Shown: positions 14,469-14,634 of the stretch, in pieces
How positions within the stretch are numbered: the stretch's first letter is position 1
Layout of the letters: the number at the start of each line of letters is the position of its first letter
Assembly (NCBI GenBank): GCA_024277355.1
Contig: JAJRVL010000004.1
Coordinates: 270,001-302,000 of the forward strand
Length of the DNA: 32,000 nucleotides
Origin: an archaeon
Lineage (GTDB): Archaea; Iainarchaeota; Iainarchaeia; Iainarchaeales; 1-14-0-10-31-34
Direction of reading: 5' to 3'
Notes under the pieces: model-generated
What the model was told of the DNA's origin: nothing
Database searches by the model: none
Seen by the model: the letters and a program-made list of their open reading frames with translations, nothing else
Program-made: the position numbers and the translations under genes

Positions 14469-14634
14469 CGCCCTAGAAAGGATTTGAACCTTTGACCTTC
14501 CGGTATCTGCTTTCACATAGGTGGAATAAGGCACGGCATAAAGCCGTGCTAGCGCTACTTTATGTAGCGCACACGCGTCAACCGAGTGAGCGGTTGTTTA
14601 ACAGCCGGATGCTCTACCACTAAGCTACCAGAGC
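14469..14634 (-). tRNA. tRNA-Asn(GUU) with a 94-nt intron at the canonical 37/38 position
   Basis: Exons: GCUCUGG UA GCUU AGUGGUA GAGC A UCCGG CUGUUA|A CCGGA AGGUC AAAGG UUCAAAU CCUUU CUAGGGC G. All stems pair (two G:U), the discriminator is G73, and there is no encoded CCA. The 5' end lies 10 nt after the AsnA-like stop. Confidence 0.85.
14505..14598 (-). other. tRNA-Asn intron (94 nt, GC-rich, three hairpins, BHB-compatible junctions)
   Basis: Central 4-bp helix C32-U35 : GCAG, flanked by 3-nt bulges UA|A and AU|A. Hairpins (forward coordinates): 14579-14596 with 6 bp, 14552-14570 with 7 bp, 14531-14549 with 7 bp. Confidence 0.8.

Follow-up and report, generated by a model that had tools for sequence, protein, structure and literature searches.

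The 32,000-nt stretch of DNA analysed here (the window), which derives from an AT-rich DPANN archaeon, carries a tRNA-Asn(GUU) gene whose 94-nt intron is made of the same hairpins as sequences that lie outside tRNA genes in sister genomes. Our preferred reading, to which we assign a probability of about 0.6, is that this is a real archaeal tRNA-Asn(GUU) with an intron of the bulge-helix-bulge (BHB) type at position 37/38, and that the body of the intron is a dispersed hairpin element inserted into the anticodon loop. Judged by sequence comparison, it looks like an intron caught soon after its making from a dispersed repeat. An original prediction, made from the letters of the window, had recognised the interrupted gene; it missed the membership of the intron body, on the alignments given below, in a family of dispersed repeats, and likewise that no other genome compared has the gene at this site.

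The gene is divided as follows (loci fetched from other genomes carry the prefix L; a slash marks a cut or a join):

14634..14469, minus strand: tRNA-Asn(GUU) gene with intron, 166 nt, 72 nt when spliced (RF00005, 53.7 bits; ARAGORN intron mode).
14599..14634, minus strand: 5' exon, standard positions 1-37, ending ...CUGUUA (fold and ARAGORN).
14598..14505, minus strand: 94-nt intron, canonical position 37/38, member of the multi-hairpin element family (Rfam, fold, and homology to L154/L155 14197-14264 and other copies).
14469..14504, minus strand: 3' exon, from A38 to discriminator G73 (fold and ARAGORN).
Predicted exon junction after splicing: ...GGCUGUUA / ACCGGAAGG (UUA/ACCGG).
Predicted circular-intron junction: ...GAAAGCAGAU / AACAACCGCUC.

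The Rfam tRNA model spans the gene with 95 inserted bases 3' of the anticodon. ARAGORN does not call the gene under default settings and reports tRNA-Asn(gtt) with a 94-nt intron when introns are allowed, so that the two methods agree with the original prediction on a gene with an intron longer than its 72-nt mature tRNA, and place it on the minus strand. The spliced tRNA is a clean cloverleaf by ARAGORN, with U33, anticodon GUU, a normal T-loop and G73, and cuts at the predicted borders restore the 7-nt anticodon loop CUGUUAA. The gene starts 10 nt past the stop codon of the gene upstream. An Rfam E-value scan of 14400-14700 returned the tRNA as sole match and no self-splicing intron core; 94 nt is too little room for a group I or other self-splicing ribozyme core. 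The intron had also been described as unusually GC-rich and unusually long, and both statements need narrowing. Its GC content is 51% against 28% for the window, but the exons of tRNA-Asn are equally at 51%, and the intron is at the level of structured RNA in this genome, not above it. The usual archaeal tRNA intron has a median length of 12-25 nt, and this one is about four to eight times that. It sits in the upper tail, yet within the 11-129 nt published for archaeal tRNA introns (PMC4090602).

The fold of the pre-tRNA has a junction next to the anticodon stem and three hairpins in the intron body:

14601..14604, minus strand: 5' strand of the central BHB helix H, C32 U33 G34 U35 (pair probabilities 0.91-0.93).
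14507..14510, minus strand: 3' strand of helix H, GCAG, from the element's 3' tail (GUGAAAGCAG, aligned with the GAAAAGCUG that ends the L154 element).
14598..14600, minus strand: 5' splice-site bulge U36 A37 / A, opening to a multibranch loop without inner helix h' (A37 and the first intron A 0.999 unpaired).
14504..14506, minus strand: 3' splice-site bulge A U / A38, adjoining the anticodon stem (0.94 unpaired).
14579..14596, minus strand: hairpin hpX, CAACCG CUCACU CGGUUG.
14552..14570, minus strand: hairpin hpB, GCGCUAC AUAAA GUAGCGC (4 of 7 pairs covary across copies).
14531..14549, minus strand: hairpin hpC, GCACGGC UUUAU GCCGUGC (compensatory and G.U changes across copies).
14505..14530, minus strand: element tail, consisting of linker CUUAUUCC, then a degenerate version of the fourth hairpin (hpY), then GUGAAAGCAGAU, aligned to CUCGUGCU, CAAACG GCGAAA CGUUUG and AAAAGCUG of L154.

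Pair probabilities in the pre-tRNA ensemble bear out the core helix CUGU:GCAG with 3-nt bulges that had been drawn by eye, with the addition that U36 pairs with an A in 73% of the ensemble (0.73), extending the helix to 5 bp. The inner helix h' had been reported missing, and in fact pairing of the first 10 intron bases with the 16 bases preceding GCAG stays below a probability of 0.02 throughout. The junction thus belongs, as proposed, to the relaxed hBH or bulge-helix-loop (BHL) type: an outer helix, one regular bulge and a central helix are present, and the second site lies in a loop. The three consecutive perfect hairpins are likewise upheld, with folding energies of -6.0, -10.6 and -13.2 kcal/mol for hpX, hpB and hpC and a z score of -4.3 for the intron fold against shuffled sequences. 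The window holds five perfect hairpins with a stem of at least 6 bp and at least 57% GC, and three of them are inside the 94-nt intron.

A search for C/D boxes came back as empty as the original prediction had said, with no UGAUG or CUGA anywhere in the intron, and motif search and inspection ruled out H/ACA and kink-turn (K-turn) readings as well. Genes for Nop5 and fibrillarin stand side by side at 24083-25639 (plus strand), so box C/D ribonucleoprotein machinery is present despite the boxless intron. The loops of hpB (AUAAA) and hpC (UUUAU) are exact complements. A kissing loop between them was dropped, since the 2-nt linker cannot span a loop-loop helix, and is further ruled out by the L155 copy, which in sense orientation has AUAAA against UUCAC; it is simpler to suppose that one ancestral loop flip-flopped between inverted arms.

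The evidence that carries the preferred reading comes from copies of these hairpins outside tRNA genes. By blastn against the fetched loci, intron positions 3-70 match L154/L155 14197-14264 at 58 of 68 bases (E 1.3e-9), and a segment of L152 matches at 28 of 29. From the start of hpX through the 8-nt linker that follows, the window intron and the L154 copy are identical (26 of 26 bases), although the AsnRS (asparaginyl-tRNA synthetase) proteins of these genomes differ by 15%. The next stem, hpB, differs between the two copies by four compensatory pair changes (GCGCUAC/GUAGCGC vs GCAGAGC/GCUCUGC), and hpC of the L154 copy contains one U.G pair. The L154 copy is an intergenic insertion of ~108 nt downstream of a fructose-bisphosphate (FBP) aldolase gene, in a region that otherwise aligns in five genomes including that of the window. 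Modules also lie directly 3' of tRNA-Gln in L155, L152 and L159, a 64-nt piece of the family lies 3' of a DUF1616 gene in L153, and the window itself has a partial second member with a tRNA-type promoter motif in front:

21935..21998, minus strand: CGCUAUC AAA GAUAGCG, linker AUCGCACU, CAACUG CCGAAA CAGUUG, UUUU (GC island with hairpins; R1 19.4 bits, E 0.007).

R1 is a covariance model of hpX, hpB and hpC that has the window intron among its training sequences (90.5 bits). It scores 86.4 bits at L154/L155, 80.0 at L155, 74.8 at L152 and 28.2 at L159, while nothing in 656 kb of unrelated control DNA scores above 13.5 bits. No Rfam family matches the element, and viral, phage and plasmid collections yielded no copy of the module, a single 19-mer match in a GC-rich viral contig being chance. 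By these alignments, the body of the intron is a copy of a GC-rich element of several hairpins that is dispersed and specific to the lineage.

A full element consists, in order, of a short leader, hpX (5-6 bp), an 8-nt linker, hpB (7 bp, loop RUAAA), UA, hpC (7 bp, loop UUYAY), a second 8-nt linker CUYRUNCY, hpY (6 bp) and a tail. Membership was judged by hpX, the 8-nt linker, hpB, UA and hpC with stems of 6, 7 and 7 bp that R1 detects, and the window intron has all of these. Its hpY is decayed, and its tail reads GUGAAAGCAG where L154 has GAAAAGCUG; elsewhere hpY occurs as CAAACG GCGAAA CGUUUG, CAACAG CCGAAA CUGUUG, CAGCUG GACGUGG CAGCUG and CAACUG CCGAAA CAGUUG. The same stem serves as hpB in one genome and, with flipped loop, as hpC in another. 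As the modules are near-palindromic, R1 matches them on both strands, and their orientation was set by the second linker (CUCGUGCU, CUCGUACC, CUGUAUGC or CUUAUUCC), hpY, and the U-run or tail.

With four full copies so oriented, hpB and hpC are paired in all 56 of their stem cells and 6 of the 14 pairs are changed on both sides, a level that 0-1 of 500 shuffles reach; 4 more pairs are changed on one side to G.U. An earlier count over three helices had found compensatory changes in 7 of 20 pairs. In 23 stems drawn from seven copies, there are five non-Watson-Crick pairs. Each of them is G.U when read from the strand that is transcribed together with the neighbouring gene; the opposite strand would give A.C. 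The six apparently independent placements (tRNA-Asn intron, tRNA-Gln trailer, L154 intergenic site, L153 gene 3' end, L159 spacer and window 21.9 kb) are all co-oriented with the local transcription unit.

The genes on either side of tRNA-Asn allow the site to be compared with that in relatives:

13125..14426, minus strand: asnS, asparagine--tRNA ligase, directly downstream of tRNA-Asn (NCBIfam NF003037, 468 bits).
14645..15561, minus strand: AsnRS-paralogue asparagine synthetase A-like gene, directly upstream of tRNA-Asn (NCBIfam NF005054; frameshift near 15380 by tblastn against the L153 orthologue).

The closest AsnRS proteins, 84-87% identical, are from metagenome-assembled genomes labelled Candidatus Diapherotrites or "archaeon". 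We compared the asnS neighbourhoods of seven close relatives in this range (L001, L002, L152-L155 and L159) and of four distant ones (L156, L157, L160 and L161, 66-71%). Synteny is conserved, and in none of these loci, counted as nine related genomes, does a tRNA lie between the upstream gene and asnS; before asnS, the close relatives have a spacer of 52-78 nt and the distant ones have ~9 nt. By this comparison, the position of tRNA-Asn is specific to the window genome, and because outgroups and all close relatives have no tRNA there, a gain at asnS in the window lineage is the parsimonious reading. The only other tRNA-Asn seen near asnS, downstream of it in L156, is intronless and very different in sequence. 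In L159, the spacer at the same site as the window tRNA contains a lone family hairpin (hpC) with a tail; these are all that align, and no convincing remnant of a tRNA-Asn exon was found in that spacer.

Searches for homologous introns gave little. In a contig scan with the exon 19-mer TAGAGCATCCGGCTGTTAA, which is the 5' half common to many bacterial tRNA-Asn genes, the matches listed (at least 120 loci) were only intronless bacterial tRNA-Asn genes. A metagenome scan with the exon-gap-exon pattern CCGGCTGTTAAD...CCGGNAGGTC gave 26 matches, 24 of them chance; of the others, L145 merely resembles the 3' half of tRNA-Asn, and L142 is a tRNA-Asn on another 24%-GC contig that has an unrelated 68-nt intron with strict hBHBh'. 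A second long intron did appear in the close relative L152, where a tRNA-Gln(UUG) at 20536-20702 (plus strand), missed by the Rfam gathering scan and by default ARAGORN, contains a 93-nt AU-rich intron at or near 37/38 with two long A/U hairpins, and G37 for A37. It has no significant similarity to the hairpin module, to the tRNA-Asn intron or to any fetched sequence. With this second, unrelated long intron, such introns are evidently being gained sporadically in this clade.

Three copies bear signs of insertion in the form of flanking target duplications of 21-29 nt (L153, L155 and L152). At L153 2772-2888, the 64-nt hairpin insert stands between exact direct repeats of 26 nt. The repeated sequence, GGTTTTGGATTGAAGTCAAATAATTT, is the last part of the DUF1616 gene, stop codon included, and is unusually long for a target duplication around so small an insert. 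In L155 and L152, the modules are followed by a decayed duplicate of the T-loop and 3' end of tRNA-Gln, 17/21 and ~24/29 identical (shuffle p <=0.002). No terminal inverted repeats were found in the element family. The sole transposon-like gene seen, a truncated TnpB in L156, does not adjoin a module.

Under the preferred reading, the element would have inserted into, or recombined with, the anticodon loop of tRNA-Asn, a direction (element to tRNA) that we infer from the comparisons above. Its tail GCAG would then pair with C32-U35 and leave A37/A and U/A38 in unpaired trinucleotides, creating the relaxed hBH (BHL) motif, and the insertion would have been tolerated because the tail supplies this motif. 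The splicing endonuclease would cut after A37 and before A38, an RtcB-type ligase would join the exons, and a very stable 94-nt hairpin RNA would be released and probably circularised. Since hpX begins 2 nt past the cut, it may stack on the central helix as a stand-in for h'. Relaxed motifs are not accepted by all enzymes: the strict hBHBh' form is a requirement of alpha4 and alpha'2 endonucleases, whereas hBH is cut by those of (alpha-beta)2 and epsilon2 type (PMC3239211). The call of the original prediction for an endonuclease of broad specificity follows from this literature. A 2025 structure accounts for the positioning of the bulge by a loop (PMC12397907). All three of alpha4, (alpha-beta)2 and epsilon2 occur in DPANN lineages, and disrupted tRNA genes go together with alpha4 enzymes that have an additional C-terminal loop (PMC5829648), so EndA subunit type alone is insufficient to decide whether a relaxed motif is cleaved. 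The EndA gene was not found among the open reading frames (ORFs) of the window.

A number of points weigh against this reading. The inner helix at the 5' splice site is missing, and the junction does not have the strict hBHBh' form. The intron copy lacks flanking target duplications and terminal inverted repeats, and no transposase or integrase that could act as an autonomous partner was seen near any copy. An integrase-type insertion at tRNA-Asn finds no support in a duplicated exon segment or an integrase there, decayed duplicates being present only at the tRNA-Gln genes of L152 and L155. The sample is small, 12 related loci with ~230 kb in all, one ancestral event may lie behind the three copies linked to tRNA-Gln, and the orientation of near-palindromic modules depends on the second linker, hpY and U-run. 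The movement could also have run in reverse, with an old intron as the source of the intergenic copies. Lastly, both neighbouring genes upstream are frameshifted. The asnA-like gene (15367-15561 and 14645-15379, minus strand) has one frameshift, a T missing near 15380, relative to intact sister orthologues, and the bacterial-type aspS beyond it (17090-17497 and 16119-17135, minus strand) has one in an A7 run at ~17095-17101, where A8 restores the frame; these could be assembly indels or real decay beside an inserted tRNA.

The original prediction took the hairpins to serve something besides splicing, such as a role after excision. The same hairpins, with compensatory changes, do exist outside tRNA genes, but an origin from a repeat is no less likely than a function dedicated to the excised RNA, because the intron belongs to a repeat family and its gene has a unique position. 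The two ideas meet in the strongest alternative to the preferred reading, with which it partly overlaps and which we consider possible though clearly less likely: the hairpin element would be a functional small RNA family with the intron as one of its expression sites, released by the splicing endonuclease here, by RNase Z behind tRNA-Gln and from its own tRNA-type promoter at 21998..21935. Stems kept by compensatory changes with G.U on the transcribed strand only, the sense orientation of all six placements, and the perfect identity of hpX and first linker despite AsnRS divergence all speak for such a function, as does the 21.9-kb copy, which follows the ~29-nt motif found before tRNA-Ile and tRNA-Thr and ends in UUUU; box C/D RNAs nested in archaeal tRNA-Trp introns provide a precedent (PMC4090602). 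However, hairpin mobile elements that move as single strands would also show structure conservation and strand bias, the target duplications indicate insertion events, the copies are truncated or mosaic (hpY lost in the intron, a half unit at 21.9 kb) and patchy among close relatives, and they have neither a match in Rfam nor a conserved, guide-like single-stranded segment in common. A mobile or selfish repeat and a functional small RNA are compatible readings of the element, not exclusive ones; patchiness in close relatives, an empty site for each locus, flanking duplications, truncated mosaic copies and flipped stems are points for the mobile repeat. A wider proposal, which we offer tentatively, is that Iainarchaeota/Diapherotrites-like DPANN archaea have a previously undescribed family of ~100-nt four-hairpin elements that would spread to new sites, always sense-oriented within a transcription unit, and depend for release on tRNA-processing enzymes, namely the splicing endonuclease in an anticodon loop or RNase Z in a tRNA trailer. 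The tRNA-Asn intron would be freshly born from this family, while its non-intronic relatives can still be recognised.

It is unlikely that this tRNA-Asn is instead a pseudogene or spare copy disrupted by the repeat and left unspliced, with a working tRNA-Asn elsewhere. Such a gene could well have a position unique to the window genome, stand without the promoter motif of tRNA-Ile and tRNA-Thr (which was not found before tRNA-Asn), lack the inner helix at its 5' splice site and have frameshifted neighbours. But the exons are intact, with all stems paired and U33, GUU, the T-loop and G73 in place, and relaxed hBH is a known substrate class (PMC3239211). The 3' end of the intron is exactly complementary to C32-U35 and in register, whereas GCUG, the counterpart in the L154 tail, would mispair.

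We think it very improbable that the palindromes act as DNA, for example as dyads bound by the adjacent regulator of AsnC/Lrp type or as sites of recombination, with the RNA hairpins a by-product. In the window copy, all 20 stem pairs are Watson-Crick, hpB and hpC each form a dyad of 19 bp around an A/T centre, the two centres being 21 bp apart, and an AsnC-family gene lies 1 kb away; yet G.U pairs in relatives break the dyad on one strand only, stem sequences vary freely with pairing kept, which is ill-suited to a sequence-specific site, and other copies are not near AsnC genes. Least credible of all is the version of the original prediction, a one-off intron unrelated to the rest of the genome whose hairpins evolved in place for a dedicated post-excision role: high stability and a non-random fold agree with it, but the same module outside tRNA genes in sisters, and in part at 21.9 kb of the window, contradicts it.

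The surroundings of tRNA-Asn and of the family copies have features of their own. Farther upstream of tRNA-Asn are the AsnC-family regulator gene and then the bacterial-type aspS, so that 13125-17497 forms an Asp/Asn module in which asnS, tRNA-Asn, the asparagine synthetase A-like gene, an AsnC/Lrp regulator and AspRS (aspartyl-tRNA synthetase) lie within 4.4 kb. This bacterial-type AspRS is without the usual insertion domain. The protein genes of the cluster are kept in close relatives; in distant ones aspS abuts asnS and there is no asnA-like gene. The ~29-nt motif, TTTTGATAAA(A/G)CTTTTTTCTAAAAAGTT with an AT-rich hairpin, directly precedes tRNA-Ile in three tandem copies (5082-5174, plus strand) and tRNA-Thr (22442-22475, minus strand), and also tRNA-Ile of L153 and L159. 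Four further copies at 21.9-22.13 kb (21912-22130, minus strand) form a tandem array of motif plus short segment, with GTGTGACGGAATACA present twice and AGTTTGTGTTTGCAAA found also at 5057-5072; the motif copies are probably stable-RNA promoters with small transcripts.

At tRNA-Gln, the first 16 nt of the gene are duplicated 45 nt upstream, both in L159 (19987-20002 and 20047-20062) and in the window (4788-4803 and 4849-4864, minus strand). Between the repeats lie an AT-rich hairpin and these 16 nt once more in inverted form, a layout kept in L159. The orientation of tRNA-Gln relative to tRNA-Ile varies among sister genomes. After the FBP aldolase gene, a conserved intergenic unit at 10262-10352 (minus strand) aligns in L001, L002, L153 and L154. 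It has a CCAAAAAGCCTTTATAAA resembling a B-recognition element (BRE) and TATA box, then ~45 nt, then a hairpin of 10-13 bp whose loop is CCUCA, and a run of T. It has no Rfam match (L154), and may be either a gene for a small RNA or a leader of terminator type belonging to the next operon. ORFs resembling LAGLIDADG-type homing endonucleases lie near the tRNA-Thr/GlyRS region in L157 (2529-3416) and L159 (1-178).

The origin of the protein-spliced tRNA introns of archaea and eukaryotes is an old open question. If the tRNA-Asn intron is indeed a fresh birth from the hairpin family, it would be direct sequence evidence for dispersed repeats as a possible source of such introns. The presence of a relaxed motif in so long an intron at the canonical position in a DPANN genome also bears on what DPANN endonucleases must accept. 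The tRNA complements of such genomes are probably under-called, because default ARAGORN missed tRNA-Asn and the Rfam gathering scan missed the L152 tRNA-Gln.

Relaxed splice motifs have been described mainly at non-canonical tRNA positions. The tRNA-Asn intron has its relaxed motif at the canonical site, with a 5' site that opens to a multibranch loop of three hairpins; otherwise it is like other archaeal BHB introns in its 4-bp helix between anticodon loop and intron 3' end, its 3-nt bulges, the cut after the second bulge base, its length (PMC4090602) and the loss of one flanking helix as in hBH (PMC3239211). The euryarchaeal tRNA-Trp intron with its box C/D RNA is also a long structured intron that houses a separable module, one that also exists as an independent gene (PMC4090602). 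The likeness holds only in a loose sense, since the tRNA-Asn intron fails the defining C/D test: it has no C/D boxes, K-turn or Rfam family, and no guide complementarity was identified in it. In other respects, the element resembles bacterial repetitive extragenic palindromic (REP), bacterial interspersed mosaic element (BIME) and miniature inverted-repeat transposable element (MITE) types of repeat, which are short GC-rich palindromes in an AT-rich genome, head-to-tail with opposite-oriented loops, at gene 3' ends and intergenic sites and patchy among close relatives. It differs from them in that no RAYT/TnpA partner and no terminal inverted repeats were seen, and the target duplications of transposons are usually far shorter than its 21-29 nt flanking repeats. 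To our knowledge, no such hairpin repeats have been described in DPANN archaea.

Published evidence for late gain of tRNA introns consists of similar introns in different Thermoproteales tRNAs and one Caldiarchaeum locus. In Thermoproteales, related introns occur at unrelated tRNA sites (Fujishima et al. 2010, as relayed in PMC4033280), which likewise implies intron gain through sequence movement. In that relayed account, the copies are all introns of other tRNA genes, while here the relatives of the intron are non-intronic (intergenic, in tRNA 3' trailers and at a gene 3' end) and the lineage is DPANN. The Caldiarchaeum model, in which a tRNA gene is disrupted by an integrating mobile element with a recombinase-bearing insert (PMC3293823), shares with our loci the tie between intron gain and mobile DNA and the decayed duplicate of a tRNA 3' end beyond the insert (tRNA-Gln in L152 and L155); the inserts here are 65-130 nt of hairpins only, with no recombinase gene, and one target is the 3' end of a protein gene (L153). 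Neither precedent aligns an intron with non-intronic hairpin repeats. What is new here is an intron that can be aligned base by base with non-intronic sister copies, together with a visible empty site in nine relatives, and the question of origin therefore becomes testable with the genome and RNA-seq data of a single clade.

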